Shown piece after piece: positions 2,633-44,812 of a stretch of 54,481 nt of DNA. Under the pieces are notes generated by a model. That model ran no database searches. It was not told the DNA's origin and was given only the letters and a program-made list of their open reading frames with translations. Both the position numbers and the translations under genes were made by a program. The stretch spans positions 1-54,481 of the forward strand of contig CAYYUX010000004.1 in assembly GCA_964474975.1 (NCBI GenBank). The letters run 5' to 3'. This stretch comes from an uncultured Thermodesulfobacteriota bacterium. Lineage in GTDB: Bacteria; Desulfobacterota; GWC2-55-46; JADFVP01. Every line of letters begins with the position of its first letter. Position 1 is the first letter of the stretch.

Positions 2633-3883
2633 TTATAAGATGATACCGCCTGCCACGGTAAAGCCATCGTGTTCAAGGACAAAACGGCCCGTCTCCTGAA
2701 TCTTGGAGAATGGATCCACTACAACGGGTCTATCGAGCTTTATCTCCACCTTTGCCACCTCTGATGGCTTTATAATGGAAGCGTCTCTCTCAACTACCTC
2801 AATGGAGGCAGGGTCAAACCTCTGGTAGATCTTCTCTATTGTGGCCCCTGCATCCTGAGTGGCGCACTTGAAGGTCAAGGGTCTGCCAAGGGTGTAGTCC
2901 TTATCGACCATCCAGAATATATTGGCATTTATGGTATCTGTCACATCGGCATCAATGCGGTCAACGACTATCTGCCCCCTATCAAAGCCAACGCCCTCGG
3001 CGGTAATGCCTATGGCGTCACCGGCGGTGGCCTCTTTGATACCATCTTCAAGGTATTTTTTTATTTCCTTGATGCGCGCCTTTTTCTTTTCCGGGAGTAT
3101 AAAGACCTCTTCTCCTGCGCGCAGTACCCCGGCCTCAACCCTGCCTACGGCCACCTTCACGCCATCGATATCATATACGTCCTGCACGGGAAATCTCATT
3201 CCGCGGTCCAGGGCCTTTACGGACTCGAAACTATCGAGGGCGCTAAGCACGGTAGGCCCGTCATACCACTTCATGTTCACGGACTTTTCGGCAACATTGT
3301 CACCCTCCATGGCGGAGATGGGTATGACATAAGAAGGGGTTATGCCGAGGCCAGACAGCACCTTTGTAATATCATCTTTTACCTTGATAAAGGACTCTTC
3401 CGAGTACCCCGTAAGGTCCATCTTGTTAAGTAGCACGGCCACCTGCTTAATGCCGAGGAGGCCGAGGACATGGCAGTGCCTGAGAGTCTGCTCCTCAACA
3501 CCGCGCGCCGCGTCTACAAGCATAATGGCCGCCTCGGCCTGCGAGGTGCCGCTAATCATGTTTTTAAGAAACTCCCTGTGCCCGGGAGCGTCGATGATTA
3601 CGTATCTTCTGCGCTCTGTATTAAAAAATGTATGAGCGATGTCTATGGTGATACCCTGGTCGCGCTCTTCCTGCAGGCAATCCATGACATGGGCGAACTC
3701 TATCTTTCCGTCTTTGCCTTCAGCCTTTGAACTCTCCTTTATCTCCTCCATCTTCGATGGCGAGAGACAGCCCGTATCAAAAAAGAGTCTGCCCACGAGG
3801 GTGCTCTTGCCGTGGTCCACATGCCCTACGATAACAATATGAAGTTCCCTTTCTTCCATTATTGCATCTCCTGTTTTTGTCAT
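2633..3883 (-). CDS. cysN: Sulfate adenylyltransferase GTPase subunit CysN (no fused APS kinase domain)
   Basis: EF-Tu-like motifs [37 protein letters not shown]; immediately downstream of cysD; only 416 aa. Confidence 0.9.
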
Positions 3884-3884
3884 A

Positions 3885-4688
3885 TCACATATACCCCAAT
3901 GCGCGTAGCTTCTGCATAGTGTAGGCGTCTTCCTTGTCCTGCGCCCTGCCGGCCCTCTCAGAGGTAGTTGAGTCAGATATTTCCTCTATTATCTCGTCTA
4001 CATTCGCGGCCTTTGAGTCCACAGGCCCGCAACAGGGCGCGCATCCGATGGAGCGGAACCTCTTGCCTTCCTTGCTGAAGTAGAGCTCCGAGATAGGCAG
4101 GTTCTCTCTCTTAACATACTTCCAGATATCAAGCTCCGTCATATGGAGTATGGGATGGACACGCACATGGTCCTCACCCTCGGACTCTGACTTGTACTGG
4201 TCCCATAGCTCGGCGGGCTGGTCTTCGTAGTTCCACCGGAAGTTCTCGTCCCTTGGGGAAAAGACCCTCTCCTTCGCGCGGATGCCATGCTCGTCGCGTC
4301 TTATGCCGAGGAGCAGGGCCTTGAAGCCGTACTTCGCTATGGTCTGCTTGAGGGCATTGGTCTTCAGTTCGTTACAGCAATCGAGCTTACTGCCCTTGCC
4401 CGGCCCCATGCCGCCGTCAAGGGCCTCGGAGTTACGCCCCACTATGAGGTCGAGACCCCATTCTTTTGCGTACTTATCGCGGAATTCATACATCTCCGGA
4501 AACTTGTAACTCGTATCTATGTGTAATACGGGAAATGGAATTTTGCCGAAAAAGGCCTTTTTACATAGCCATAAAAGGGTTGTAGAGTCCTTACCCACAG
4601 ACCAGAGCAAGGCAATATTTCTGTACTTGGCGTAGGCCTCCCTGATGATAAAGATACTCTTATTCTCAAGCATTGTGAGTTGATCCAT
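3885..4688 (-). CDS. cysD: Sulfate adenylyltransferase catalytic subunit CysD
   Basis: PP-loop LWSVGKDS, '[17 protein letters not shown]', '[12 protein letters not shown]', '[16 protein letters not shown]', 'SERAGRAQD'. Confidence 0.92.
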
Positions 4689-4711
4689 AACTTCTCCTTG
4701 TAATATGAGAA

Positions 4712-6064
4712 TTAAGCGGAAAAATAATCCAGTATAATCGGGGCAAGGGACTCGATGTGAAGGCGCGACGCCGGTGCCGCCGAATCAGGCAGGATAGAAT
4801 GGGCGTCATGCCTTGTGTGCATACCAGTGAAGCGTCCGTTGCCAAAGGGTTCCGCCTTTTTGAAGGCGCTCTTCAAATCAAAACCGTCATTAGCGAGGCA
4901 GACAAGGTCCGGGCCAACCTCAGCAGAGGGGCCGCTGTACAGCTCGGCCTTATTGTATATCTTTTTTATTACCTTCTGCCCATCATAGGTAAGGGAATCA
5001 AGTACTTTCCTGACCTCGGCAATTACAGCAGGGACATCAGAGGCAGAGACAGCTCCCGCCGGATACTTTCCCTCGGTGTTGATGTATATCCGTGCCGGCT
5101 CCATGGCAAAGGCCTTTGTAGGGGCCTTTATCTGCTCGAAATAATCACGGCTCTCATCAAGATGAAGGATCCCGGCATTCTGAAAAACAGTATTTATATA
5201 CACTTCTTTTTTAAGCTCCGTAAAACCATGGTCCGACATGGTCATGAATAGCCCGTCTCCCTTTGAGAGATCATGAAAACGGGCGAAGAGGGTACCGATA
5301 ATGGCGTCGAGCTTCTGATAAAAACTAACAAAAGCACCGTGATATTTATGGTTTTCATCAAAGGCCGCATCAAAAAAGAAGTGATGAATCCTGTCTGTCT
5401 CCGTAATAACGGCAATAAAGAGATCCCATGGATCATTCACCATGAGGTTCTCAAAGGCCTCCATGCGCTTATCAAGCACATAGTCTACCTCTTCAAAAAA
5501 CCCATCGGGGTTTGAGACGGCCTTTGCGGCATCTACATCGGAGCGGTAGTCAATGGATTTAAGATAATCATAGGCGCTCGCCGGATATGTGCCCTTTTGC
5601 AGGTCTATGCAGACAAAACCCGCCGTCAATATGCCGTTCATGGGCGAAGCCGGGTAGGTCTCGGGTATGTTCATCACAACGGAGCGCAGAGGCTCTGGGA
5701 AGCGTCCGCTGTAACGGTCGCCGAGGGCGGAGCGTTTATCACCAACCGTACCGCCGATGATATCCCAGATGGAAGGCGCGCCTATATTGGAATAGGATGG
5801 AAAATACATGGAGTAGGCCCCGGGCTTCAAGTCCATGAAGCCGTATATACCGTGCTCGCCGGGGTTGGCGCCCGTAAGGAAGGAGGCCCATGATGTTGAT
5901 GATACGTCGGGTATGGACGCGTCCATCTCATGAAGGGCAAAGCCGCTTGAGAGTATCTCCCGGACATGAGGCATGAGGCCCCTCTTCATATATTCCGTAA
6001 TAAGCCCTGTAGATACGCCGTCAAGGCCCACTGCAAGACATCTTTTTTTTCTTGTCTCCGACAA
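4712..6064 (-). CDS. AlkP-superfamily (type I phosphodiesterase/NPP-like) enzyme, cytoplasmic
   Basis: 'VGLDG', nucleophile segment 'SIPDVSSTSWASFLTG.NPGEHGIYGF', 'ETDRIHHFFF', 'MSDHGF', 'GMH'; AGGAGG RBS before the TTG start; no signal peptide. Confidence 0.85.
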   Translation of the reverse strand: MSETRKKRCLAVGLDGVSTGLITEYMKRGLMPHVREILSSGFALHEMDASIPDVSSTSWASFLTGANPGEHGIYGFMDLKPGAYSMYFPSYSNIGAPSIWDIIGGTVGDKRSALGDRYSGRFPEPLRSVVMNIPETYPASPMNGILTAGFVCIDLQKGTYPASAYDYLKSIDYRSDVDAAKAVSNPDGFFEEVDYVLDKRMEAFENLMVNDPWDLFIAVITETDRIHHFFFDAAFDENHKYHGAFVSFYQKLDAIIGTLFARFHDLSKGDGLFMTMSDHGFTELKKEVYINTVFQNAGILHLDESRDYFEQIKAPTKAFAMEPARIYINTEGKYPAGAVSASDVPAVIAEVRKVLDSLTYDGQKVIKKIYNKAELYSGPSAEVGPDLVCLANDGFDLKSAFKKAEPFGNGRFTGMHTRHDAHSILPDSAAPASRLHIESLAPIILDYFSA

Positions 6065-15700: not shown

Positions 15701-16702
15701 TTAAAAAAAGAGGTAGGGGCTGAGAGAAACCCCCTTTCTTCTTAACTTCATTATATTCGATAAAGGGTACTGCTCAGTCCCCGCGGTTGTACTGCAAACA
15801 AGCTCAAATCCCTCCTCACGCAATATTTTCATAACATCTTCAGAGTAATCATCGTCTTTGCCGTATGGATAGGCAAATACTTTTACAGACTGCTGAATCT
15901 GTTCCTCGATCATTTTTTTTGATTCAACAATTTCCTCTCGTGCCTCAGAGACCGGGAGAGAACTCAACACAGGGTGCGACCTTGTATGACTGCCGAAGGA
16001 GATACCTCCGCACGACATCTCCTTGACTTCTTCCCAGGTAAGCATCACTCTTTCGCCATCATTCGGCCATGCTCTTACTTTGCATATCTGTGATAAATAT
16101 TTCAGAGAATCATTGCGCTCATCGGGTGTATACGCCTTAAATCTATCGGCCAATGAACGCAATATACAGATCCTTGCAGACGGGTCGGACGCGAAGAAGA
16201 GGCAAATCTCCTTGCCTGCCTCGTGGAGGAGCTTGTTGCCGCCAAAATTTTCAATCTTTGGAAAAGCTTTTGCCTTGTACATTATCCACGCAAGCATATC
16301 AGGCCATAAAAGTCTGCCTGTATCTATATAATCGGTGGCAAGAAAAATCGTGGCAGGGACATTGTGCTTTTTCAATACGGGAAAGGCTTCAGAATAGTTA
16401 TTGCGGTAGCCATCATCAAAGGTAATAACTGCAATATCTTTTTTCGAGTTTTCCTTATACTCGCGTTTATTCAGATATTTCAGATCGACAATATCATAAT
16501 GCTTCTTCAAAAAAATAATCTGCCTTTCAAAAACATCCGGCCTTACGGCGTGGCCGAAGAGGGGCTTCGCCTGATAATGTATTTTATGGTAAAGCAAGAT
16601 GAAAATTTTTCTCTTACCGGTCAGTCTCCGCCAGAGTATTTTCCACTGTGGGAATCCACCATAATACAGAATAGGCCTCAGCAAAATCCGCGTGCTTGCC
16701 AT
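15701..16702 (-). CDS. Polysaccharide deacetylase (CE4/NodB homology domain)
   Basis: 'ILLYH', 'ITFDDGY', 'PATIFL', 'GSHTRSHPVL', 'FAYPYG'. Confidence 0.9.
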   Translation of the reverse strand: MASTRILLRPILYYGGFPQWKILWRRLTGKRKIFILLYHKIHYQAKPLFGHAVRPDVFERQIIFLKKHYDIVDLKYLNKREYKENSKKDIAVITFDDGYRNNYSEAFPVLKKHNVPATIFLATDYIDTGRLLWPDMLAWIMYKAKAFPKIENFGGNKLLHEAGKEICLFFASDPSARICILRSLADRFKAYTPDERNDSLKYLSQICKVRAWPNDGERVMLTWEEVKEMSCGGISFGSHTRSHPVLSSLPVSEAREEIVESKKMIEEQIQQSVKVFAYPYGKDDDYSEDVMKILREEGFELVCSTTAGTEQYPLSNIMKLRRKGVSLSPYLFF

Positions 16703-16708
16703 AATGGT

Positions 16709-18190
16709 CTACATATACCCTAATGCTTTTAAACGGTCAATCATTGAAGCATCTATCTTGTCTGAGTTGATCTCCCCCTCAATCTTATTTATATTATCGA
16801 GATAGAACTCATTCATCTTCGCATAGCGAATAGATGCTTCATGCTCTAAATCTCCATAACTATTTGTTTTATGATACAAGTTGTTTATCTCTCCGGGATC
16901 ATCTGCTAAATTGTAGCACTCATGGCTTCCATTAGATGAGTATATAAATTTCCTATCTTTCGAACGGATGCTTAATAACCGCCTATCGTATTTCTGCAGA
17001 CGGTCCCTGTACTTAACTCTCTCGGGGCCGAATGCCTTTATCAACTCCGATACTGCCAGGCCTTGCTTCCTCCGGGGACGCACCTTGCCAAGGAGGTCAT
17101 TGCCCTGCACCTGTTCCCATATCTTTTTGTCCTCAATATTAAGAAGAGAAAGAATAGTGGGATAAATGTCCACGTTCTGTACCACTTCGGAAACACTGCC
17201 GGTCAAACTCAAATCTTTAGGGTATTTTATCAGCAATGGAATCTTAACAAGGGTATCGTATAAACAAAAATAGTGGAACATAAGCCCGTGATCACCGAGG
17301 TTGTCGCCATGGTCCGCAAGGATAATCACCATAGTATTATCATAAACATCATATTTTTTTAGTAGCTTAAAAATCCTCGATATAATATGGTCGGCATAAT
17401 AAATTGAATTATCATAAAAAGACTGGAGGATCTGAAAATCTTCAGCGGACATATTGCTCTGACCAAGTAGATACTTCAGGTGGTCATGGTTAATAGATAA
17501 TTTTTTATAATTATCACGTAAATTAGCAAATTTAAGCGCATACTTGAAGGGCGAGCGGTATGGCGAGTGCGTCTCAAAAAGATGCGTATACACAAAAAAG
17601 GGCTTGTCCCTGTTATGCTTCAGCCACCCGGATAATTTATTATGAAAGTAGTGACTGCCTCGATCTATCAACACATCAAAGGAACGGGCCAGCATATCAA
17701 ATAAGGCTTTTTTCTTGGGATTTATCTCCTCCTCTGAAGAGTCATCTGCTCGAGTAATCCCGGGAGGCTGTAAACGGTTGACCTGTTTTCTGAACAATGT
17801 GGAGACAACTTTTTTAACTGTATCGACACTGTATTCCGAGACAAAATCATCGAAGCCTCTATCAAGCCCCGAGTATGGGGATACGTAAACGTTCTTTACA
17901 AAACCAGCGGTATTATAACCATACTTTTTTAGTGCGCTTGGCAGTGTAAGGAACTTCTCGTCGAGCGTATCACCATCGACCAGAAGGCCATGCTTTGATG
18001 TATACATGCCCGTAAAAAGAGAAGCTATGGAAGGCATCGTCCAGTAACTTGAAGATACGGCATTTTCGTAAACAGAGAGCTCCGACCGGATGGAAGAGAG
18101 AAATGGCATGGTATTACGATGATAGCCGTAGATCGGCACATTCTGTGCTCTAACAGCATCCATGACTATTATCAATACATTTGGTTTCAT
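16709..18190 (-). CDS. Sulfatase-fold (AlkP superfamily) hydrolase/transferase with Thr at the nucleophile position
   Basis: 'PNVLIIVMDAVRA', 'SYWTMPSIASLFTG', 'ETHSPY', 'ADHGD.LGDHG', 'YNLADDPGE..NL'; lacks the C/S-x-P-x-R formylglycine motif; no signal peptide. Confidence 0.85.
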   Translation of the reverse strand: MKPNVLIIVMDAVRAQNVPIYGYHRNTMPFLSSIRSELSVYENAVSSSYWTMPSIASLFTGMYTSKHGLLVDGDTLDEKFLTLPSALKKYGYNTAGFVKNVYVSPYSGLDRGFDDFVSEYSVDTVKKVVSTLFRKQVNRLQPPGITRADDSSEEEINPKKKALFDMLARSFDVLIDRGSHYFHNKLSGWLKHNRDKPFFVYTHLFETHSPYRSPFKYALKFANLRDNYKKLSINHDHLKYLLGQSNMSAEDFQILQSFYDNSIYYADHIISRIFKLLKKYDVYDNTMVIILADHGDNLGDHGLMFHYFCLYDTLVKIPLLIKYPKDLSLTGSVSEVVQNVDIYPTILSLLNIEDKKIWEQVQGNDLLGKVRPRRKQGLAVSELIKAFGPERVKYRDRLQKYDRRLLSIRSKDRKFIYSSNGSHECYNLADDPGEINNLYHKTNSYGDLEHEASIRYAKMNEFYLDNINKIEGEINSDKIDASMIDRLKALGYM

Positions 18191-19381: not shown

Positions 19382-20614
19382 CTACTTATATTTTCGCACA
19401 ACAATGACAGAGTTTACCCCACCAAAGCCGAAGGAGTTTGAGAGAGCCGTATTAATCTCTGCCTTTCTGCCCTGATTCGGCACATAGTCAAGGTCGCACT
19501 CAGGATCTGGAACCTCATAATTTATAGTAGGAGGAAGATACTGATTTTCAATGGCGAGTATGGTAGCGATAAGCTCCGCAGACCCCGCCGCGCCAAGCAT
19601 ATGACCGACCATGGATTTAATTGAACTTACTGGTACCGAGTATGCCCTTTCACCCAGAGCCGCCTTTATGGCCATGGTCTCGCCTTTGTCGTTCTGAGAT
19701 GTCGCAGTACCGTGCGCATTTATGTAATCAATATCATCTACAGAGATCCCGGCATCATTAATGGCGCCCTTAATGGTATCCGTCTCCCCTTCTATACTTG
19801 GAAAAGTAAGGTGATGCGCGTCTGAACCGGCCCAGTATCCCGCCACCTCGCAATATATATGAGCCGAGCGTTTCAATGCGTGTTCCAAGCTCTCAAGCAC
19901 AATTACACCGGAGCCCTCTCCTAAAACCGGGCCGTCTCTGTCTTTGCTAAAAGGCCTAACAGCCCCCTCGGGGCAATCATTCCTCGTAGACAAGACCCTT
20001 AACTTACACCAACCACTCAACATAGGAGGCGTAATAGGGGCTTCCGAACCTGCGGTAATCAAGGCATCGGCATATCCATGTTTAATAAGCCTGTACCCTT
20101 CGCCCACAGAAACAGCTCCAGAGGCGCACGTATTGGTATATGAATAATTAACCCCTTTAATCCCGTATTCTATCGCGATGTTTGAGGCAACCGCTACTCC
20201 CATTGCCCTTGGAAAGGTTATAGGGTCTACGGCCCGGGCGCTCTTAAGATAAAAGTCTTTATACAACTCCTCCCGGGAATGTACAGCGCCTTCACTTGTA
20301 CCGCACAGGACACCGATCCTTCGGCGGTTGTCATCGTTAATCTCAAGTTTGCTGTCTTTAATGGCCTCAGCCGCGGCGACAAGGGCAAATTGGGTGATCC
20401 GATCAGTTACATAAATCTTCTGCGGACTCATATGGTTTTTAGGCTCAAACCCCTTGACCTGCGCGGCCACTTTTGTCCTGAAAGGGGCCGTGTCAAAGCC
20501 CTCAATAGGGGCCACACCGGACCTGCCGCATGATAAGGAATCCCAGTAAGCCTTTTTATCATTACCTATGGGGCTGATAATCCCCATACCTGTAACCACT
20601 ACTCTCTTTTCCAA
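19382..20614 (-). CDS. fabF: Beta-ketoacyl-ACP synthase II-type ketosynthase (copy 2)
   Basis: 'RVVVTGMG', catalytic 'NTCASG', 'INAHGTAT', 'SIKSMVGHMLGAAG', 'SNSFGFGG'. Start placed at TTG 20614 behind a GAGGA RBS; the ORF track extends to 20680. Confidence 0.88.
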   Translation of the reverse strand: MEKRVVVTGMGIISPIGNDKKAYWDSLSCGRSGVAPIEGFDTAPFRTKVAAQVKGFEPKNHMSPQKIYVTDRITQFALVAAAEAIKDSKLEINDDNRRRIGVLCGTSEGAVHSREELYKDFYLKSARAVDPITFPRAMGVAVASNIAIEYGIKGVNYSYTNTCASGAVSVGEGYRLIKHGYADALITAGSEAPITPPMLSGWCKLRVLSTRNDCPEGAVRPFSKDRDGPVLGEGSGVIVLESLEHALKRSAHIYCEVAGYWAGSDAHHLTFPSIEGETDTIKGAINDAGISVDDIDYINAHGTATSQNDKGETMAIKAALGERAYSVPVSSIKSMVGHMLGAAGSAELIATILAIENQYLPPTINYEVPDPECDLDYVPNQGRKAEINTALSNSFGFGGVNSVIVVRKYK

Positions 20615-20615
20615 A

Positions 20616-21893
20616 TCACATATCCTCACTATCAGAACCATTCCATTTTTTAAGCACCAAGGTTGAGTTGGCCCCTCCAAAACCGAAAGAGTTCGTTAAT
20701 GCGATATTAACGTTTACATCCCTCGCAGTATTCGGCACATAGTCAAGATCACACTCAGGGTCCGGTTCTTCGTAGTTAATGGTAGGCGGGACTACGCTAT
20801 TCTCCATGGCAAGGATACAGGTTATAAATTCTATAGCCCCTGATGCGCCAAAAGTATGTCCAACATTTGGCTTAATTGAGCTTATTGGAACGGAGTATGC
20901 CTTATCACCCCAAACCTCCTTAAGCGTCTCTGTCTCTACCTTATCATTCGCCCTCGTCGCAGTACCATGGGCACTGATATAATCAACATCCCCTGGTCCT
21001 ATACCGGCTTCGTCCAGAGCCATTTTTATCGCTCTTACTTCCTGAGCTTGATTCGGATAGGTAATATGAAAAGCATCACTTGTCGCCCCATAGCCGATAA
21101 CCTCACAGTATATCCTCGCATCTCTTGCCAGGGCGCTCTCCAGACTCTCAAGTATTACAATGCCCGCCCCTTCGCCTATTACAAGGCCATCACGATTTTT
21201 ACTAAAGGGCTTGCAGGCCCTTTTAGGGTCATCGTTATTGGGAGACAGAGCCCTGAGCTTGTTCCACCCTGAGAAAACAATGGGAGAGATAGTAGCATCA
21301 GAGCCGCCTGTGACCATTATATTCTGATATCCGTTTTTTATCTTCTGATAGGACTCCCCGATAGCATTAGAGCCCGATGAACAAGCGGTAGCCAATGCAT
21401 AGCTTATCCCTTTAAGCCCGAAGTGAAGAGATATATTACTTGCGGCGGCATTATACATAACCAGAGGCACTGTTAATGGATTGACATAACGGTAACCTTT
21501 TTGAAAAAGCTCTTTGGCAGAATTGTCATGGGAGACAATGCCAGCCACGGCAGAGCCAAGTATTACGCCTGCCTCCTCTCTGGCATTATTACTAAGAGCG
21601 CTGTCTTGAAGGGCAGATGTTGTAGCGGCAATCCCGAAAAGGGCACATGGATCCATCCTCTTAATATTCTTAACGTCAAGAAAATCTTTAGGATTAAAAT
21701 CATCTATAGTTGCCGCTATCTTCGTCCTGTAGCTTGAAGTATCCAACCTCGCCTCAGGAATTCTCTTAACACCGGTTTTTCCACTAATCAAGGCCTCCCA
21801 AAAAGATTCTTTAGTAGAACCAATAGATGTAAGCAGACCTATCCCGGTGACGACAACCCGTCTTTTGCCACTACCTTGCACGGGCCTACGCAT
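20616..21893 (-). CDS. fabF: Beta-ketoacyl-ACP synthase II-type ketosynthase (copy 1)
   Basis: 'RRVVVTGIG', 'TACSSG', 'SAHGTAT', 'GHTFGASG', 'NSFGFGG'. Confidence 0.9.
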   Translation of the reverse strand: MRRPVQGSGKRRVVVTGIGLLTSIGSTKESFWEALISGKTGVKRIPEARLDTSSYRTKIAATIDDFNPKDFLDVKNIKRMDPCALFGIAATTSALQDSALSNNAREEAGVILGSAVAGIVSHDNSAKELFQKGYRYVNPLTVPLVMYNAAASNISLHFGLKGISYALATACSSGSNAIGESYQKIKNGYQNIMVTGGSDATISPIVFSGWNKLRALSPNNDDPKRACKPFSKNRDGLVIGEGAGIVILESLESALARDARIYCEVIGYGATSDAFHITYPNQAQEVRAIKMALDEAGIGPGDVDYISAHGTATRANDKVETETLKEVWGDKAYSVPISSIKPNVGHTFGASGAIEFITCILAMENSVVPPTINYEEPDPECDLDYVPNTARDVNVNIALTNSFGFGGANSTLVLKKWNGSDSEDM

Positions 21894-22137
21894 CCTCCAT
21901 GCATTCTTGGATTAATACAACGGCAGAGGCAAAAGAGTCAATCTTCTGTGCGGCCTCATCAGGGATATCAACATCAAAAAGTTGCTCAAGATTGGATATT
22001 ATACCTAAGGCGGAAAGAGAATCGCCTCCGAGCTCAGCAAGGGTAGAGTCTTTCTTAATATCCTCCACCGAGACATCCAAAACCTTGGTTATAGCCTGTT
22101 TAACCTTTTCTTCGACTGCTTTAATATCTTCCGGCAT
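21886..22137 (-). CDS. acpP: Acyl carrier protein
   Basis: 83 aa acidic protein with phosphopantetheine site 'LGGDSL' and 'LEQLFDVDIPDE.A.KI'. Confidence 0.88.
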   Translation of the reverse strand: MPEDIKAVEEKVKQAITKVLDVSVEDIKKDSTLAELGGDSLSALGIISNLEQLFDVDIPDEAAQKIDSFASAVVLIQECMEDA

Positions 22138-22156: not shown

Positions 22157-22903
22157 TCAGGCCAACCCGCCGTCTATTCTTATTACCTGACCGGTAATAT
22201 AACTTGAATGCTCAGAAGCAAGGAAGCACACCGTATCAGCCACCTCTTGAGGTCTTCCAAATCGTCCCAACGGTATATTGTCAAGATATTTTCTCTGCGA
22301 TTCTTCAGGAATATCATTCAGCATATCTGTTTCGATAAAACCCGGCGCAACGGCATTCGCGTTAATACCAAAAGGCGCCAGTTCCTTGGCCAGAGACTTG
22401 GTGAAACCGATAACACCACCTTTGGAGGCAGTATAATTGGTCTGTCCAGAAGAGCCTACAATACCACTGAGAGACGCAATATTTATTACTCTCCCGGTTC
22501 TTCTTTTCATCATTGAAAAGACAACACTTCTTGTAACGTTAATAACGCCTATGAGGTTGGTATTAATCACCTCAAGCCAGTCATCAGGCTCCATGTTAAT
22601 TAAAAATTTATCTCGTAAGATGCCCGCGTTGTTGACAAGAATGTCAACAGGCCCCAGGGAGTCCTTTACCGACTTTACCATTGATTTAACAGCATCATAA
22701 TCAGCAACAGGACATTGCAATGCCAGTGCCTCTCGACCGAGAGCCCTTATCTCTTCTTCAACCCTCTTGGCGGTTTTATCGCTGGACAAATAAGTAAAGG
22801 CTACATCAGCACCATTGCCCGCAAGGGTCAATGCAATCTCGCGGCCTATTCCCCTTGTAGCGCCCGTAATTAATGCAATTTTGTTTTCCAAGTCCAATTC
22901 CAT
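22157..22903 (-). CDS. fabG: 3-oxoacyl-ACP reductase (SDR family)
   Basis: 'TGATRGIG', 'VNNAGI.RD', '[11 protein letters not shown]', 'VAPGFI.TDM', 'YITGQV'. Start set at ATG 22903 (MELDL); the ORF track extends to 22999. Confidence 0.9.
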
Positions 22904-23672
22904 ATCAATGGGTATGCGACGCGATACTTGAATGTAATATAATTTAAACTTTGCACATTCTATCTGAGAGATAAGCGGCCTTAAAAATAATGGCCGCAAC
23001 TCATATTTATTACAGGCGAGTTACTATTCAATAACTCAGCTCTTGATGTAATATTTTATCATATAGCCATGATGAATAAAACAAAAGTTTTAATGACTCC
23101 AAACCCGCCTTCATCTCGGCATATTCACCTCGGGCCGCCGGATTTCCCATCCATTGCAAGAGGAGATAAAAAATCAAACAGCCCTGTAGAGCAGTCTATA
23201 TTCGCCCTCTTTTACCATATCGTTTTATCCGAGTCAAAACAAATATAGGCAGAAATTTAGTAGCATTTACAGTTTTTTGCTATGCTATTATCACCTTTTT
23301 TTATAGGCAGTTCTCACAGCCAGACCTCACTCAGACGCAGGAGATCAGGCCAGCCGCACTCCCAGCGTCAAGGGCTCGTTAAGAACGGCCTAAAGGTTGC
23401 TTCCGGCGGACTTATTGATAACAGATAGTTCTTTTTCGTTTCTCGAAAGCCCCTCCGTGACCATATCATACCTAAGTTCCTCGTAAGCTGTTTGACGCTC
23501 TTTCTTGAGGCCGCATACCTGCCTCGTCTGGGGTAAAAACACATTAATAGGTTCTCTATACTATGCCGCAGGCACATCTGAACGAGAGCATATCAGCCGG
23601 GTGCATCTTCCACGGCGTTACCCCTTGCCGCCTGCACAAAAAAACCTTCCCGCCTTGATAATTACACTCAAC

Positions 23673-23775: not shown

Positions 23776-24834
23776 TCACGTTGTTTTCCCATACTTGGGA
23801 CACCTGCGGCAGACATCGGGCATACCTGTCTTTAACTCGTTGCGAAACTTTATAAAGGCCTCGCCGTTCCATATTTCCTCAAGAGTATTCTGAAAGATAT
23901 TCCCCATATATGTTGTCTTGTCATAGAAGCTGTCGCTACAGGGGTTTATCCAGCCCGAGGCATTGACATAAAAAAATTTCCAAGGCTCCCGGCACTCCCT
24001 CACCCTCTCCTCATTATTGAGACGCTCCAGCATATCGCCTCCATATACAAGTGTGACGTTTTGTTCGGCGGCGGCTTTCCTGTATTCCTCCAGTGACTTA
24101 ACATCTTCAGCGGATAATGCATCGCCTTCCGTATCATAATGTTCCAAGAGGCCGTGAAGACGTACGCGCGTTACACCTAATTTGCTAACGGTATTTACGA
24201 GTAACGGAATCTCATTGATATTCCTATGCATAGCCACCATGAAAACCGTTATATATGGTTTTGTCCGTCCCAAACCATTTCTGATCTCTATTAGTCTTTT
24301 TAAATTTGCGCACACCACATCAAATTTAGCACCGGCCCTGATTCTCTCATAGCTTTCCTGAGTTCCGCCGTCTATTGAGACATTGATATTAGTCAAACCG
24401 CGGGCGTTGACCAGTTTGAACGCTATTTCTTCAGTCATTAACATTGCGTTTGTGAAAAAATGAGTAACAATACCTTTTTTATAGGCATAATTTATCATAT
24501 CCACTAAATGCGGATTCATAAGCGGCTCGCCAACACCATTTATAAGAGCGGATTGCACAAATGGCAGTCTATCTATGACCAGCTTGAAATTTTCAAGCGA
24601 CATGTGTTCCAATTTACGCCTATCTTTCCATTCCTCAATAGAATGCGCGCACATTTTACACTTCAAATTACAGACGTTGGTTATCTCTATCTGCGCGGCG
24701 ATGGGCTTGCTCTTAACAACCAAGGGCAGAACCTTCAGGGTATATAGCTCCGCCACAGAGAGATTAAGGAGGCTACGAACACCTTGCCGTATTACAGCCT
24801 TACCATATCGTCTTAAAATATTTTGTTTAGCCAT
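23776..24834 (-). CDS. Radical SAM enzyme with C-terminal SPASM/twitch domain
   Basis: CxxxCxxC 'CNLKCKMC', 'GVGEPLMNP', 'VSIDG', C-terminal 'CREPW...G.INPC...GNI....L.EIWNG...CRRC'. Start ATG 24834 has a GGAGG RBS; the ORF track extends to 24924. Confidence 0.9.
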   Translation of the reverse strand: MAKQNILRRYGKAVIRQGVRSLLNLSVAELYTLKVLPLVVKSKPIAAQIEITNVCNLKCKMCAHSIEEWKDRRKLEHMSLENFKLVIDRLPFVQSALINGVGEPLMNPHLVDMINYAYKKGIVTHFFTNAMLMTEEIAFKLVNARGLTNINVSIDGGTQESYERIRAGAKFDVVCANLKRLIEIRNGLGRTKPYITVFMVAMHRNINEIPLLVNTVSKLGVTRVRLHGLLEHYDTEGDALSAEDVKSLEEYRKAAAEQNVTLVYGGDMLERLNNEERVRECREPWKFFYVNASGWINPCSDSFYDKTTYMGNIFQNTLEEIWNGEAFIKFRNELKTGMPDVCRRCPKYGKTT

Positions 24835-24991
24835 TTTTATCCTCCACCAATAAAATTTTAAAAACAATGGAGTATGAACTCGCCGCCTAAAGGCATACAT
24901 GCACCGATTAAACCAGCCCCACATACCGCAAGATAACCATTGTTTATTCTAAACTCCATTTCGTAACATCTGATTATGTTCAGAGAACTGT

Positions 24992-26502: not shown

Positions 26503-28137
26503 TTAGTCAAAATAACCTAAATCCTTCAGACGGCCTTCAATCTCTTTTTCTTCATCAGGGCTATACTTTGTCTCTTCTGCACCTTCAAAAACGCCTGAGA
26601 TAGAGGTGGCACTATGCCTGAGATTCCCAGTCGCTCTAAAATCCGAAGTAAAGATCTCATTTACCACTTTCCCGTCCATGTCTTCAGGGACAGGCAGGTT
26701 GAAGTTATACAGAACCGTTGGCGTAATATCCGTTATATCTGCATCTACTTCAAGGCCTTTACGTATATTCTTCCCGTATGCCGCAAAAATACCCTCTTGC
26801 CTGTGGCAGCCCTCCGGCCCCATGGCTTTTTTTACAAAGCAACCGCCTCCGATAGAGACCGACGTGTTAAGCATATAACCGTAATTTTTCATTCTCAAAA
26901 GAAGATCCGGGGCGTTCTTCACGTATGGCCCATTATACAACTCGTCTTTCAAATATACCTCGTCGACAAAGCGTTTTCCGTTAGCCGGATCAATCAGCGT
27001 AAGAAGTTTTGCTCGCAACTCCTTTATCTTTTTTGCACGATGTGCCGCATCATCCGAATAATCACTCCCCTCTTTGTTAAAATAAATACCCTGCTCATAC
27101 ACGTCACTGCTAAAGAAAACGGTCTTGGAAAAATCAATACAACGGCTCAAGGCATTTTCCGCAACGGCAATATTCCTGCCCTTGTCAAAAAACTTGTCAA
27201 TATGCATCCTGCCAATAAACTTTGTGGCATAAAGCCTTGTCTTGGAGAGAGAGAGAAGACCCTCCTTTAAGAGCCACTCATTAAGGGAAACCGTCTTTTC
27301 AAGCGGACCGAAACCATGATCAGAGACGATATAAAAGGTTGTGTCTTCATCAATCATGCTGAGAATACGCCCTATGCCATCATCCACCAGACGATATAGC
27401 TTTAATAGTTCTTCCCTGGCATGCGCGGCAACAGGCGTATTGTACATAGCCTCGCCCTTATCCAGATACTTCCAGTACTTATGTTGAATTTTGTCAAAGC
27501 ATGTAAAGACAACCATGAAGAAATCCGGTGTATACTTGCGCAGTAAAACTTCTGTCGCCTCTATACGTTTTTGAGTACATAGGATAAGGTCTTCAACAAA
27601 CTTCTGCAACTGCCCTTCCGTACCTGTCCTGCGTCCGGCGATCCTGACATTGATAACATATGAGCCAATCTCTTTAATCAACTCCTTATATAGCCCCTCA
27701 GGGTGAGTAAAGTCTTCCTTGCCAAGCGGTGTAAGCAGGCCCGGCACCATGAATCCATTAATAGGCTCCGCAGGATAGGTTATGGGCAGATTGATTACAC
27801 CAGCGCTCATTCCCGCGTTATTAAGATAATGCCATAACTTGGGCGTCTTGACGGATCTGCTACTGACAAAGGCCCTTTTTGTCTCGCCATTATTATTAGT
27901 TGTGAAGCCAAAGACACTGTGTTTGCCAGGATTCATCCCCGTTACACTGGAGACCCACGCAGGGGCCGTGTAAGGAGGAATAGTTGAACGCAAGATGCCG
28001 GAGACGCCATCGGAGCAAACCTTCTGGAGATTAGGCATATGTCCACGCTCCATTAGCGGCTTCAAGAGGTTCCATGCACCCCCGTCCAGCCCAAGAACAA
28101 AAACTTTTTCAGATGTTTTTTTTATTCCTTCTTTCAT
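26503..28137 (-). CDS. AlkP-superfamily (type I phosphodiesterase/NPP-like) enzyme
   Basis: 'VLGLDGG', 'STIPPYTAPAWVS..TG.NPGKH', 'DKIQH', 'VSDHGF', 'APDL', 'GCH.QEGIF'; C-terminus 'RLKDLGYFD'. Confidence 0.88.
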   Translation of the reverse strand: MKEGIKKTSEKVFVLGLDGGAWNLLKPLMERGHMPNLQKVCSDGVSGILRSTIPPYTAPAWVSSVTGMNPGKHSVFGFTTNNNGETKRAFVSSRSVKTPKLWHYLNNAGMSAGVINLPITYPAEPINGFMVPGLLTPLGKEDFTHPEGLYKELIKEIGSYVINVRIAGRRTGTEGQLQKFVEDLILCTQKRIEATEVLLRKYTPDFFMVVFTCFDKIQHKYWKYLDKGEAMYNTPVAAHAREELLKLYRLVDDGIGRILSMIDEDTTFYIVSDHGFGPLEKTVSLNEWLLKEGLLSLSKTRLYATKFIGRMHIDKFFDKGRNIAVAENALSRCIDFSKTVFFSSDVYEQGIYFNKEGSDYSDDAAHRAKKIKELRAKLLTLIDPANGKRFVDEVYLKDELYNGPYVKNAPDLLLRMKNYGYMLNTSVSIGGGCFVKKAMGPEGCHRQEGIFAAYGKNIRKGLEVDADITDITPTVLYNFNLPVPEDMDGKVVNEIFTSDFRATGNLRHSATSISGVFEGAEETKYSPDEEKEIEGRLKDLGYFD

Positions 28138-32285: not shown

Positions 32286-33893
32286 TTACAGATACCCCAG
32301 ATTCTTTAACAATTCTTTTGATTTCTCAAATTCATCAATGTGTCCTTTCTCTGCATCGAATGCGTGAAGCCTCAAGCTCTCATCACCGGCCTCGCGTTTC
32401 AGGGGATGATCGTCCATGAATTTACGGCTGAAAATCTCATTTATCACTCTACCGCCGTAAGTATCCGGCACAGGAACGCCCATTAGATAAAGGATGCTTG
32501 TGGTTACATCCTCGATAAATATTTCACGTTCTATGGTTGCCGCTTCTACCATGGAACCGGAGGCTATAAACATACCTTCACGCCGATGGTCTCCGATCTG
32601 AATAGGGTCTTTTGCGTCCTTTATCAGCCCCCTTCTCATAGGGCTGAAGGAGACCTTGTAGTCATACAAAAACTGCGCTGTAATATCTGGAAACTGATTC
32701 TGCAAGGGGCCTGCATAGGTATCCTCACGATAGTGTATTTTGGATACGATTTTTTTTCCTGAAGCAGGATCCTTCAAACCCTCTAGATACTCAACAACTT
32801 CTTTCTTAAGAAGATCATATTCTTTGCCGGAAGAGACAATGCCCTCTTTTTTCTCGCCCCTGGTATTGATACAGATACCAAGATAATTATTGTAAACCGG
32901 GACAGAATACAATTTGGTCTTTTTCCAATCAATAAAATCCTCAAGAATAACCTTGCGACTTTTGCCGAGCTTTCCTTCAATCCATGTTTTTAGATACTTT
33001 GTCTTACTCCCCGGGAGGTAGGCCGTATGTCCCAGGCGCCTCATCAGGGTCAAGGCGTTAACCTGCCTGGTTGCGGATCTCCCGAAGCCATGATCCGACA
33101 TAATTATCTTTACGGCATTCTCTCCCGCCTCGTCAATAAGTTGGCCGATAAGGCTATCAAGCAGGACATAATACTCTCTAATTACGCCGTAGGTCTCTCC
33201 GTCTTGCGCGTCATCCCAGAAAAAATGACAGATGCGGTCCGAACCGGTAAAAACTACCATAAAGAAGTTCCAATCCTGCGTCCTCATCAGCTTAAGCGCA
33301 TTATTGGCCCTGCTTCTTGAGAGGTTGCACACATCATGTATAAACTTTTTTTTATCATTTTTAATCAGCTCTTTTACCTGCCATCTGTTCTGATTAATCA
33401 ACCCGTCAAGGTCAACACTGTAGTCTTCCAATTGTGTCAATAGCTCTACAGGATAGACATAATCATTTGAGCCATAGGGAACGAGCATACCTGAGATCAT
33501 AAAACCATCGAGTTTGTCGGGGGGATAAGTCAAGGGAACATTCATCAATCCCACTTTGTAACCGTATTTGTTCAATACACGCCAGAAGGGTATCCCCTTC
33601 ATATTGCCAAGGTTCATAAGCGTATTCGAAGATTGCAGTTTGTACTCATTTAGCTGACGATCAAAAAAATAGGCAACACCATGCCTTCCGGGGTTGGCGC
33701 CTGTGATAAAAGACGACCAGGCAGGTGCGGTTACCGGAGGGATTGTCGAGAGGAGTCGTCCATGAGTACCCCTGTTCATAAGGGATGCAATATTCGGAAG
33801 CAGGTTTTCCTCGAGCATAGGTTCTATGATATCAAAAGTTCCCCCGTCAATGCCTATTGCCAGAATCTTCTTTGTTGTTTTTTCTTTACTCAT
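32286..33893 (-). CDS. AlkP-superfamily (type I phosphodiesterase/NPP-like) enzyme, paralog of 26503..28137
   Basis: 'IGIDGG', 'STIPPVTAPAWSSFITG.NPGRHG', 'DRICHFFW', 'MSDHGF', 'GDHRREGMF'; C-terminus 'LLKNLGYL'. Confidence 0.88.
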   Translation of the reverse strand: MSKEKTTKKILAIGIDGGTFDIIEPMLEENLLPNIASLMNRGTHGRLLSTIPPVTAPAWSSFITGANPGRHGVAYFFDRQLNEYKLQSSNTLMNLGNMKGIPFWRVLNKYGYKVGLMNVPLTYPPDKLDGFMISGMLVPYGSNDYVYPVELLTQLEDYSVDLDGLINQNRWQVKELIKNDKKKFIHDVCNLSRSRANNALKLMRTQDWNFFMVVFTGSDRICHFFWDDAQDGETYGVIREYYVLLDSLIGQLIDEAGENAVKIIMSDHGFGRSATRQVNALTLMRRLGHTAYLPGSKTKYLKTWIEGKLGKSRKVILEDFIDWKKTKLYSVPVYNNYLGICINTRGEKKEGIVSSGKEYDLLKKEVVEYLEGLKDPASGKKIVSKIHYREDTYAGPLQNQFPDITAQFLYDYKVSFSPMRRGLIKDAKDPIQIGDHRREGMFIASGSMVEAATIEREIFIEDVTTSILYLMGVPVPDTYGGRVINEIFSRKFMDDHPLKREAGDESLRLHAFDAEKGHIDEFEKSKELLKNLGYL

Positions 33894-43900: not shown

Positions 43901-44009
43901 GCGGGTCTTTCGCGAGATTGCCTCCAATAAGAACAGCAATGTTTCTCTAAAGACCCTTGCCGAAAAGAAGATAGCGGAGATAATGAAAGATATCGAGGAG
44001 CACAAATAA
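40989..44009 (+). CDS. GT-C-fold (ArnT/PMT-like) membrane glycosyltransferase with a beta-sandwich domain and C-terminal TPR repeats
   Basis: 'LDEG...Y.A..L..G...YRD....MPG' first-loop motif, about 11 TM helices, 'FKQNYG'; C-terminal helical repeats 'HMALGQIY..RG..DKA...FRAAL...P'. Confidence 0.75.
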   Translation: MKTSSASLFPGATGLAVFALAVALYLPLSYLDISMLDEGALLYVAERLTKGDVLYRDIVTGIMPGVYYLQALFFLLFGYSVIAGRVLAGLTLAASAMLMYSTARYFLTKKSAFVVTMLFISMALPAYRWPGYSQMSITLALCSLLFFLRYINSLSPYAIIISGASAGLALIFKQNYGVFLCAGLGLILLARLVCKKELKATILFSIAFLIPIALTVLYFYSEGALPEMVQYTFISLFKKAANAYYKPYPLLSRTDPYFFYHEIYNFIPFRDLAVWTLKDGIIGESWFRASAAVIYLLPPFIIAAAVFHIAAAIIRNKALPWKEGTLVLIAFLLFLGVFPRSDISHLTFILPPILITGALLGNRLHLSGRALQISRGTAFTLAGVFSISCLFSSYIPIFPLAPRAQKEALRIPRARAVRVQDNAAVVIRAVTRHIRDNTAPDEPILVVPTGAMYYFLTARKSAVPYPLIMPGAMDEAEVIAAMEKTKLRYIVYSDMSFDNKTLSRHMPLIHEYITKHYHIDDSYPLRDTGGATYVLKRGLSKEDVIPLNNYRKEPAGPKTVAYDFVKHLPDAKSGVILGIGRGLPLYRFNQVSLGAWLLKDAILQSPGRRWSKVYTSFALHIPADSALKFSIGGSPLLWHSEDGDGIFFEVYLYDIKSKKTSKLFSRYLDPKNNTGERKWFTYLAGLKKYEGRDLIISFVTSGGPRFNLTRGKINRWRQSDIAGWGEAELLSLSGDAEGGREGAKKMEIPGKKLPEAVLSEMSGFDDISFFLAEEKKNPGDYDVHMALGQIYNRRGRIDKAVGEFRAALKAYPAGSEARDFLARHYIKTGKIKKAKSLLAEGLRKAPEDSKLNMTMADLYRHRKKYKRAIAGYGRVLRLHPANQWARLSRGRSYLALGDARRAAAEAQKVLHAHPGNGTALILLGDTERFKKEWKRAEETYREALEKAPGSRTAVYKMGLTLKAEGKREKALRVFREIASNKNSNVSLKTLAEKKIAEIMKDIEEHK

Positions 44010-44812
44010 TGGGATTTGCCCTGCGAAGAAGCTTTAAACGCTCCATTGAGTTTAAGGACCTTGTGGCGGAGTTCGTGAAGAGCGACTTGAAGGCCCGTTA
44101 CGCGGGCTCGGCGCTGGGACTCTACTGGTCCGTCATCAACCCCATACTGCTCCTCATAATATACACCCTTGTCTTCTCTACCATCCTCGGCGTAAGGTTC
44201 AATGGCGGCGCGAGCCGTCACAGCTACACGCTATATCTATTTTGCGGACTCCTGCCCTGGATAGCCTTTCAGGAATCAATCACTGCCTCTGTGGGAACCC
44301 TTACGAAAAACGCCAATCTTGTGCGAAACGTCGTCTTTCCATTGAAGACTCTCCATACGTCCATCATCATCTCGGCAATTATAAGCGAGCTTATAGGCAT
44401 CGTAATACTGCTTATCTTCAGGGTCATCATGACAGGGAGCATCGGTCATCTTACGCCGCTCCTTATCATAATCATATTTTTTCAGTTTCTCCTCACCATG
44501 GGGTTTTCTCTTCTCCTATCGGCGCTCAATGTATTTTTCAGGGATGTAGCCCCTTTAATGACGCCAATAATAAGGATGTGGATGTATCTAACGCCCATTT
44601 TCTTTCCCATTACCATCGTGCCTGCGAAGGTACGGATCGTCCTTTACATCAACCCCATGACAGCCCTCGTGACGGCATACAGGGATGTCCTCCTCAATGA
44701 CAGGCTTCCAGGTATTGGATTCATATACTTAATGATATTTTCCATTGCAATATTCATCATAGGCTACCGTTTTTTCACTAAAAACCATATGAGGCTTGTA
44801 GACCTGCTTTAG
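44009..44812 (+). CDS. wzm: ABC polysaccharide exporter permease Wzm
   Basis: 'DLKARYAGSALG.YWS.INP', 'GLLPW..F', 'FFRDV', 'W.YLTPIF', 'NPM'. Confidence 0.92.
   Translation: MGFALRRSFKRSIEFKDLVAEFVKSDLKARYAGSALGLYWSVINPILLLIIYTLVFSTILGVRFNGGASRHSYTLYLFCGLLPWIAFQESITASVGTLTKNANLVRNVVFPLKTLHTSIIISAIISELIGIVILLIFRVIMTGSIGHLTPLLIIIIFFQFLLTMGFSLLLSALNVFFRDVAPLMTPIIRMWMYLTPIFFPITIVPAKVRIVLYINPMTALVTAYRDVLLNDRLPGIGFIYLMIFSIAIFIIGYRFFTKNHMRLVDLL

Follow-up and report, generated by a model that had tools for sequence, protein, structure and literature searches.

A candidate sulfate-activation module paired with alkaline phosphatase-fold enzymes in surface glycan loci of an uncultured Thermodesulfobacteriota bacterium

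Introduction

Among bacteria, sulfated polysaccharides are uncommon and of high value, and the accepted view is that making them requires 3′-phosphoadenosine 5′-phosphosulfate (PAPS) and P-loop sulfotransferases. A 54,481-nucleotide contig of an uncultured Thermodesulfobacteriota bacterium (CAYYUX010000004.1), analyzed here over its full length and referred to below as the window, carries a short operon in which a gene for an enzyme of the alkaline phosphatase (AlkP) fold stands in front of cysD and cysN, the genes for ATP sulfurylase; four more AlkP-fold domains are encoded in its two glycan loci. What is an enzyme of this fold doing beside sulfate activation? The explanation that we judge best overall, and on balance probable, is a dedicated CysDN module that, together with AlkP-fold partners, sulfates surface glycans apart from sulfur assimilation. 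The metagenome-assembled genome (MAG) from which the window comes, as contig C4, comprises 1.98 Mb in 186 contigs and is 93.6% complete; it represents a bacterium of a mat at a hot spring or vent.

Results

An AlkP-fold gene, cysD, and a short cysN form a tight operon

The operon consists of three genes, the first of which encodes a member of the nucleotide pyrophosphatase/phosphodiesterase (NPP) type:

4712-6064, minus strand: AlkP/NPP-fold enzyme (PF01663), 450 aa, Pfam 134 bits
3885-4688, minus strand: cysD, ATP sulfurylase catalytic subunit, 267 aa, with an LGY tail at its end
2633-3883, minus strand: cysN, EF-1alpha-like GTPase, 416 aa

Open reading frame (ORF) analysis of 2633-6064 places only 23 nt between the AlkP gene and cysD and 1 nt between cysD and cysN. 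The AlkP ORF begins with TTG, has a Shine-Dalgarno sequence (aggagg) 8 nt upstream, and is preceded by a noncoding stretch of ~660 nt upstream of the operon. The family membership of CysD rests on model score, PP-loop, and C-terminal end: in an NCBIfam profile search it scores 354.2 bits against NF003587 (cut-off 195) and stays under the stricter cut-offs of TIGR02039 and NF009214, it contains the PP-loop SVGKDS, and its alignment with chain A of PDB entry 1ZUN (225.6 bits) includes the C-terminal end, which follows the GY[FM] pattern. CysN passes TIGR02034 marginally (336.6 bits, cut-off 336.1), features GTP_EFTU domains, and keeps the G motifs [13 protein letters not shown] and NKMD. In the PDB it matches an archaeal EF-1alpha best (297 bits), somewhat ahead of Pseudomonas CysN (1ZUN chain B, 264 bits), and by sequence we assign it as an EF-1alpha-like CysN. 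No match to the APS-kinase family PF01583 (APS, adenosine 5′-phosphosulfate) occurs within its 416 aa, which sets it apart from the bifunctional CysNC/NodQ form. Coordinates, gaps, family models, and the missing kinase domain thus confirm the tight AlkP-cysD-cysN operon with a short cysN that a first-pass annotation of this DNA had described.

The operonic enzyme keeps a two-metal site with a serine in the nucleophile position

The product of the first gene belongs to the NPP-type family PF01663 by its fold, its six metal ligands, and a nucleophile located after the first beta-alpha unit; PF01663 scores in the window range from 128.9 to 136.7 bits. Seven residues (D15, S55, D224, H228, D278, H279, and H416) are invariant in all 31 aligned sequences, and the operonic enzyme retains the full two-metal site. 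S55, the first serine of DVSSTSW, aligns with the position in the Xanthomonas NPP that we take to be its nucleophile, so that Ser55 is presumably the nucleophile here. The first-pass annotation had read Ser/Thr in the five AlkP domains of the window and had spoken of four more Thr-nucleophile domains besides the operonic one; Thr holds for the four in the glycan loci but not for the operonic enzyme.

A sequence search of the PDB with the operonic enzyme gave no match, and its kinship with solved structures was obtained by profile search and fold search. Its AlphaFold 2 (AF2) model has a predicted local distance difference test score (pLDDT) of 94.4, and the best PDB folds for it are phosphonoacetate hydrolase and the Xanthomonas NPP. 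These hydrolases (PF01663; PDB 2GSN and 1EI6) have the fold, the two-metal site, and the nucleophile position in common with the operonic enzyme, but they are only ~14% identical to it, the window enzymes are cytoplasmic, and the operonic clade carries Ser for Thr together with the clade-specific residues Lys398, Pro323, and Phe412. We know of no hydrolase of the NPP/phosphonoacetate hydrolase family that pairs with CysD. The operonic enzyme has no LGY tail and falls into a clade whose genes adjoin cysD, cysDN, or cysC.

AlkP homologs accompany sulfate-activation genes in related genomes

The operonic enzyme has 986 homologs, the best 120 of which are 49-84% identical to it; they are labeled Thermodesulfobacteriota or Deltaproteobacteria and reach as far as Nitrospinota. 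Among 21 loci taken from species genomes, cysD directly follows the AlkP gene in 20, and the remaining locus stops at a contig end (20/20 assessable loci). The next gene is cysN in 17 loci, in one of them as a fragment, while two loci end inside cysD and one has a threonyl-tRNA synthetase gene. One locus (L011:7389-7685) joins the first 57 codons of cysD to the last 40 of cysN, head to tail, a remnant that is due to a deletion or an assembly fault. In 11 of the 21 relatives, the more distant ones (L012-L021), AlkP-cysD-cysN terminates a longer row of genes on the same strand, with a DUF362/ferredoxin gene, a B12-radical-SAM (S-adenosylmethionine) gene, a family 2 glycosyltransferase (GT2) gene, and a gene for a 704-aa molybdopterin oxidoreductase, whose stop codon overlaps the AlkP start.

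The association extends to the phylum. Of 301 evenly sampled genomes, 60 have a detected CysN, 164 an APS kinase, and 69 a match to the operonic enzyme (E ≤1e-20). The phylogenetic profiling suggested in the first-pass annotation reveals co-occurrence: CysC or CysN is present in 62/69 genomes with a match and in 121/232 without one, a difference whose significance is overstated because related genomes are not independent. By a hand count from coordinates, supported by Pfam or tblastn checks on some of the loci, cysN, cysD, or cysC is a neighbor of the AlkP gene or fused to it in at least 32 of the 69 genomes. The AlkP gene adjoins cysN in at least 12 and a CysD-like gene without cysN in at least four (G061, G279, G144, and G088); in at least 16, of which 11 were checked, APS kinase is its neighbor, is flanked by AlkP genes, or is fused to it.

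Several of these arrangements contain further genes of sulfate uptake or glycan synthesis. In genome G213, a sulfate ABC transporter lies directly upstream (transporter-AlkP-cysD-cysN), and in G151 and G118, the order NusG paralog-cysD-cysN-AlkP-Wzz heads polysaccharide operons. Relatives also have AlkP-APS kinase-AlkP sandwiches and APS kinase-AlkP fusions. PF01583 and PF01663 are both present in 116 of the 120 best clusters of the fusion family, which includes a protein of the cultured Desulfomonile tiedjei DSM 6799.

CysD-like proteins at four loci (L036, L037, L038, and L093) are 33-52% identical to CysD and lack a segment of ~23 residues while keeping the LGY tail; their partners are tail-less AlkP enzymes, and no CysN was detected in the genomes concerned. 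At loci L004, L036, and L037, GT2 and deacetylase genes accompany the AlkP-cysD modules.

Four Thr-type AlkP-fold enzymes lie in two glycan loci

The remaining AlkP-fold domains of the window are distributed over two glycan loci, one of Wzx/Wzy type (~12.4 to 39 kb) and one of ABC-transporter type (40.2 kb to the window end), the latter containing the glycosyltransferase (GT) fusion at 49506-53150:

16709-18190, minus strand: sulfatase-fold enzyme (PF00884 and SGSH_C) whose formylglycine position is Thr51, LGY tail
26503-28137, minus strand: long PF01663 enzyme, 544 aa, Thr nucleophile, LGY tail, between Wzy-like and Wzx-like genes
32286-33893, minus strand: second long PF01663 enzyme, 535 aa, Thr nucleophile, LGY tail
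49506-53150, plus strand: 1214-aa fusion protein with GT4, an unassigned middle part, and a domain of sulfatase fold whose formylglycine position is Thr, LGY tail

Pfam finds all five AlkP-fold domains where the first-pass annotation had put them (PF01663 in three proteins, PF00884 in two); the sulfatase-fold part of the fusion is matched by PF00884 at residues 789-1087 (nt 51870-52766). In a search of the whole MAG, 4/4 PF01663 matches and 2/2 PF00884 matches fell on the window contig, a clustering of AlkP-fold genes far above chance. No signal peptide or membrane helix was detected in a hydropathy scan, as no 19-residue segment of any of the five proteins attains a Kyte-Doolittle value ≥1.6, and the AlkP-fold enzymes have their first metal-binding Asp among residues 1-20. 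The formylglycine motif C/S-x-P-x-R was likewise not found in any of the five domains. The earlier statements on signal peptides and on this motif are therefore upheld, the latter by motif reading and by alignment with a sulfatase. In that alignment, made with a solved sulfatase construct, Thr51 of 16709-18190 stands opposite the Ser in the formylglycine position, and Ile55 opposite the Arg. The residues at the motif positions read T-M-P-S-I in 16709-18190 and T-I-P-S-H in 49506-53150, and the Thr at the formylglycine position is near-invariant in 35 homologs.

The AF2 model of 16709-18190 (pLDDT 88.8) has as its nearest folds in Foldseek the S1 carbohydrate sulfatases, choline sulfatase, and phosphonate monoester hydrolase. 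The S1 formylglycine sulfatases and phosphonate monoester hydrolases (PF00884) have the same fold, including the SGSH_C part, but the window enzymes carry Thr in place of the Cys/Ser precursor of formylglycine and Ile or His in place of Arg, and they are cytoplasmic. Membership in the LtaS/EptA group is contradicted by the absence of a hydrophobic anchor and by NCBIfam scores far under the cut-offs (e.g., 55.8 versus 561 bits), and none of the five AlkP-fold proteins belongs to the P-loop sulfotransferase families PF00685 and PF13469. A radical-SAM/SPASM gene at 23776-24924 was considered as a sulfatase-maturing enzyme and rejected, as its NCBIfam scores all stay below their cut-offs (140 bits at best, against 380) and the formylglycine motif is missing.

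A common C-terminal tail is predicted to dock in the operonic enzyme

The C terminus of CysD and of each of the four glycan-locus enzymes is a helix with LGY and one or two residues after it. The pattern L..[LM]GY plus 0-3 residues terminates only 8 of 35,024 MAG frames (≥30 aa). CysD and the four glycan-locus AlkP-fold enzymes account for five of these, and the remaining three have no charged helix before the pattern. Among homologs, GY plus 0-3 residues ends 115/119 relatives of 26503-28137, and the tail is present in 121/150 representatives found with 16709-18190, in 21/21 aligned CysD and CysD-like sequences, and in 118 of the 120 best APS kinase-AlkP fusion clusters. Stand-alone APS kinases carry the strict tail in 7/7 cases when adjacent to an AlkP gene and in 0/40 others; the ends of ordinary APS kinases follow a similar but looser pattern. 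No tail is present on the AlkP proteins whose genes flank those of tailed CysD or CysC. AF2 models the tail of 16709-18190 as a short tethered helix (residues 481-490) on a linker of lower confidence.

In a quick maximum-likelihood tree, 44 PF01663 proteins fall into three groups: a tail-less clade of 19, with the operonic enzyme of the window among them (SH-aLRT 100), an APS-kinase-adjacent or -fused clade, and the tail-bearing glycan-locus proteins. The nucleophile position is occupied by Ser in 19/19 rows of the tail-less clade and by Thr in 24/25 rows of the other groups. Within the tail-less clade, position 398 is Lys in 17 rows and Arg in two, Pro323 is present in 19/19, and Phe412 in 12/19; these residues are not conserved in the other two groups.

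Structure prediction of CysD together with the operonic AlkP enzyme yields an ipSAE of 0.66 (runs 0.64, 0.74, and 0.66), with 0.00 for the best of three controls. This mark is attained by 58/80 solved complexes and 2/110 mismatched pairs, a calibration that is approximate here because we used our own alignments. Agreement between the runs covers at least 51% of contacts, and the pLDDT of the partner is at least 91. On the CysD side, the confident interface is confined to the tail (residues 253-267); on the AlkP side, it is the catalytic cleft, with Ser55, Asp224, Arg225, His228, and Lys398. The LGY tail of CysD is thus predicted to dock in the active-site cleft of the operonic enzyme. To our knowledge, no complex of this kind has been solved, and the score is therefore unlikely to reflect memorized structures. 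Three elements are new here: the predicted docking between the CysD tail and the cleft of the tail-less clade, the pocket residues specific to that clade, and the division into Ser and Thr types.

CysN was also considered as the partner of the tail, since the CysD end is conserved in 1ZUN, and was set aside: tail-bearing enzymes occur in six genomes without detected CysN, and the CysD-like proteins are tailed in the absence of CysN. CysN is described as contacting CysD where EF-Tu contacts aminoacyl-tRNA, according to the available text of PMC5770160.

The genome holds a second activating system and canonical sulfation genes

In the window, neither APS kinase nor APS/PAPS reductase nor P-loop sulfotransferase was found among 40 ORFs of at least 150 aa and in genome-wide family searches, in agreement with the first-pass annotation. 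The wider designation of the system as free of sulfotransferases fails at the level of the genome, where the search for cysC and sulfotransferases that the annotation itself had proposed turned up both. Contig C20 breaks off 78 codons into an APS kinase gene (92.2 bits) that comes just after rmlA-like, rmlD, and rmlB genes, and a weak second PF01583 match (21.6 bits) lies in a 447-aa frame on C51. Contig C49 encodes a 1567-aa protein (L043:2167-6867) with an N-terminal Sulfotransfer_3 domain (29.5 bits, cut-off 27) followed by GT4 and GT2. This domain is the sole genome match among the P-loop sulfotransferase families PF00685 and PF13469, and PF00685 itself has no match in the 93.6% complete genome. 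C49 represents a third glycan locus, with Wzm and Wzt beside the Sulfotransfer_3 fusion, and the 1567-aa protein resembles a sulfotransferase-polymerase that caps chains in an ABC-transporter-type glycan pathway. Its architecture parallels that of 49506-53150: both are glycosyltransferase fusions encoded beside Wzm and Wzt, the C49 protein with a P-loop sulfotransferase domain and the window protein with one of sulfatase fold.

A separate locus carries an assimilatory set. Contig C6 encodes a Na/sulfate symporter, a CysH-like reductase (182.7 bits), and the homomeric ATP sulfurylase Sat (326.9 bits). Since assimilation has its own Sat and CysH-like set, the CysDN of the window constitutes a second activating system, seemingly dedicated to another purpose.

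Other features of the window

Several further genes complete the two glycan loci:

15701-16702: Polysacc_deac_1 deacetylase, directly after 16709-18190
44009-44812: Wzm, in the ABC-transporter-type glycan locus
44816-46072: Wzt with Wzt_C, in the ABC-transporter-type glycan locus
46059-47114: methyltransferase with a long C-terminal coiled coil, after Wzt

The methyltransferase presumably resembles the WbdD-type chain-length regulators of ABC-transporter O-antigen pathways. The position of the deacetylase beside a Thr-type sulfatase-fold gene would fit a sequence of amino-sugar deacetylation and subsequent sulfation. The Wzx/Wzy locus also contains an acyl-chain cassette with two ketosynthases (19382-20680 and 20616-21893), a ketoreductase (22157-22999), and an 83-aa carrier protein with a GGDSLS motif (21886-22137), next to the radical-SAM/SPASM gene at 23776-24924; the cassette suggests an acyl or lipid decoration of the polymer. 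Over positions 10001-40000, which hold a glycoside hydrolase family 5 (GH5) gene and the first polysaccharide locus, G+C drops to 0.40-0.47 from ~0.51-0.52, and the second locus is back at ~0.51, so the first may be an island acquired from elsewhere. Other genes of the window encode type II secretion pseudopilins, two subtilases, and one GH5 enzyme. An Rfam scan of the window returned no family at gathering score.

Discussion

A candidate route from activated sulfate to surface glycans

Genetic precedents from haloarchaea make sulfate transfer the best reading of the glycan-locus enzymes. According to the available text of PMC3892788 and PMC11980604, Agl7 of Haloferax volcanii (HVO_2046), annotated as a sulfatase, is needed to sulfate the dolichol-phosphate-bound hexose, and Agl30 (VNG1056C) and Agl31 (VNG1057C) of Halobacterium salinarum sulfate the N-glycan and confer sulfation when expressed in Haloferax; Agl31, at least, is described there as soluble and cytosolic. 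Like the window enzymes, these three are described as AlkP-superfamily sulfatase-like proteins encoded in glycan clusters. The best structural matches reported for the Agl30/Agl31/Agl7 group, 5G2U and 6HHM, are found at ranks 46 and 48 in the Foldseek results for 16709-18190. By sequence-based assignment, the window enzymes would share with the Agl proteins the defining features of an AlkP-fold glycan sulfotransferase, namely the fold, a place in a glycan cluster, and the cytoplasmic side. The two sets also differ. The Agl proteins act in archaeal N-glycosylation rather than in bacterial polysaccharide loci, the likeness considered here is one of description and fold, and three of the five window enzymes are of NPP type (PF01663), not of sulfatase type. 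The available text of PMC11980604 and PMC3892788 reports no CysDN link, tail, or donor for the Agl proteins. Taken together with synteny, fusions, co-occurrence, and the common tail, the haloarchaeal genetics supports the earlier proposal, which connects the AlkP-fold enzymes with sulfate activation and makes them candidate cytoplasmic transferases rather than sulfatases.

In the proposed route, CysD and CysN would, as their sequences suggest, make APS, and the AlkP-fold enzymes would act as the sulfate-handling partners. By analogy, the most likely role of the four tailed Thr-type enzymes of the glycan loci is to move sulfate from APS or PAPS to lipid-linked or nascent glycans at the cytoplasmic face. 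The cleft of the operonic Ser-type enzyme is predicted to receive the CysD tail and, by extension, might receive the tails of APS kinases and AlkP-fold transferases; the enzyme could be a hub for docking or regulation, or it could be the first to accept activated sulfate. The chemistry might proceed through a covalent Ser/Thr-O-sulfate intermediate at the two-metal site. The donor could be APS or PAPS. APS alone is possible for the kinase-less operon, but we do not favor it over PAPS because the genome has a cysC fragment and relatives have kinase fusions; the frequent fusion or adjacency of relatives to APS kinase argues, on sequence grounds, that at least some AlkP clades use PAPS. The canonical route, in which CysDN/NodPQ, CysC, and a P-loop sulfotransferase (NodH) cooperate, resembles this one in that a pathway-specific copy of CysD and CysN feeds a glycan pathway, but here the operon contains an AlkP-fold gene in the place of an APS kinase, and the window glycan loci are free of P-loop sulfotransferases.

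A more far-reaching version, which we put forward tentatively as a possibility rather than an expectation, regards the LGY tail as a portable docking peptide that plugs the cleft of the Ser-type tail-less AlkP enzymes. CysD, APS kinase, and the AlkP-fold transferases would then assemble into a complex, similar to cysteine synthase, that channels or gates activated sulfate, and glycans would be sulfated by phosphatase-fold enzymes, in kinase-less operons directly from APS. In the cysteine synthase complex, the C-terminal tail of CysE lies in the active site of CysK, much as the CysD tail is predicted to enter the active site encoded by the adjoining gene; the folds are unrelated, however, the docking is a prediction here, and the tail is carried by several enzyme families.

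Several observations weigh against sulfation by the AlkP-fold enzymes. The Ser/Thr nucleophile with Asp/His ligands is a hallmark of phosphoryl rather than sulfuryl transfer in the AlkP superfamily, and we know of no biochemistry on any bacterial member. The canonical sulfotransferase domain and the APS kinase of the genome could alone account for glycan sulfation, and 7 of the 69 genomes with a match have neither CysC nor CysN at the thresholds used. The complex score expresses model confidence and is not a measurement, and a tail in the active site could make the operonic enzyme an inhibited or regulatory protein rather than a transferase. The clustering by context in the tree is partly circular, as the rows near cysC or cysD were chosen by adjacency. 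Finally, tail-bearing enzymes occur in genomes where CysN was not found, and at least one of these, G083, has only long-type matches, so that neither CysN nor the tail-less clade can be the universal receptor of the tail. Overall, the link of AlkP-fold enzymes to sulfate activation, as interpreted in the first-pass annotation, stands, and the qualifier "sulfotransferase-free" does not hold for the genome (C20, C49).

Alternative explanations

The phosphoryl-transfer hallmark leads to an alternative in which the glycan-locus AlkP enzymes transfer or trim phosphate-linked substituents, such as phosphoglycerol, phosphoethanolamine, phosphocholine, or sugar phosphates, while any sulfation is left to the canonical APS kinase and Sulfotransfer_3 protein and the tail merely co-localizes envelope-modifying enzymes. 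The Thr nucleophile and Asp/His ligands are indeed those of NPP, LtaS, and EptA, there are weak NCBIfam matches to EptA/MCR and LtaS models, and the genome has both cysC and a canonical sulfotransferase domain. We nevertheless consider this explanation unlikely, as the EptA/LtaS scores stay far below their cut-offs (55.8 versus 561 bits, for example), a membrane anchor is missing, and no donor pathway for a phospho-substituent turned up among the 40 window ORFs scanned. It also leaves unexplained the fusions and adjacency to APS kinase, CysD, and CysN, the sulfate-transporter context, the tail common to CysD and AlkP-linked CysC, and the haloarchaeal genetics. Even less can be said for ordinary assimilatory sulfate activation with the AlkP gene as an unrelated neighbor, which we regard as very improbable: CysDN is the usual assimilatory enzyme in many bacteria, but here Sat, a CysH-like reductase, and a sulfate symporter share one locus elsewhere (C6), the AlkP-cysD synteny holds in 20/20 assessable loci across phyla, and the complex prediction passed.

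A different question is whether the operonic enzyme is itself an accessory hydrolase, be it a pyrophosphatase that pulls APS synthesis, a PAP (3′-phosphoadenosine 5′-phosphate)/APS phosphatase that removes by-products, or a CysK-like regulator gated by the CysD tail. Its Ser matches that of alkaline phosphatase, it adjoins an APS-making or APS-using enzyme in every arrangement, its clade is separate from the glycan-locus enzymes, and the predicted contact of the tail with the active site is like that of an inhibitory or regulatory complex; the pairs of AlkP enzymes with CysD-like proteins lacking CysN would fit a pyrophosphatase that replaces the GTPase drive. A pyrophosphatase is at odds with the AlkP-APS kinase-AlkP sandwiches, however, since the kinase releases no pyrophosphate, and a PAP phosphatase would have no substrate in a kinase-less operon. 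We doubt this alternative to about the same degree as phosphate-substituent transfer, and the enzyme may be hub and transferase at once.

Implications

Full-text literature searches yielded no paper that links AlkP-family proteins with cysD, cysN, and sulfotransferase and none that names an APS-dependent sulfotransferase; the haloarchaeal genetics alone turned up. The dedicated CysDN module with AlkP-fold partners points to a still uncharacterized way of sulfating surface sugars. If phosphatase-fold enzymes linked to CysDN or CysC perform the transfer, a function would be gained for a large unnamed enzyme group, thousands of proteins annotated in glycan loci of bacteria and archaea as "sulfatase" or "alkaline phosphatase family protein", and many of these "sulfatase" annotations would be wrong. 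Sulfuryl transfer would, moreover, be a new chemistry for the two-metal Ser/Thr site.

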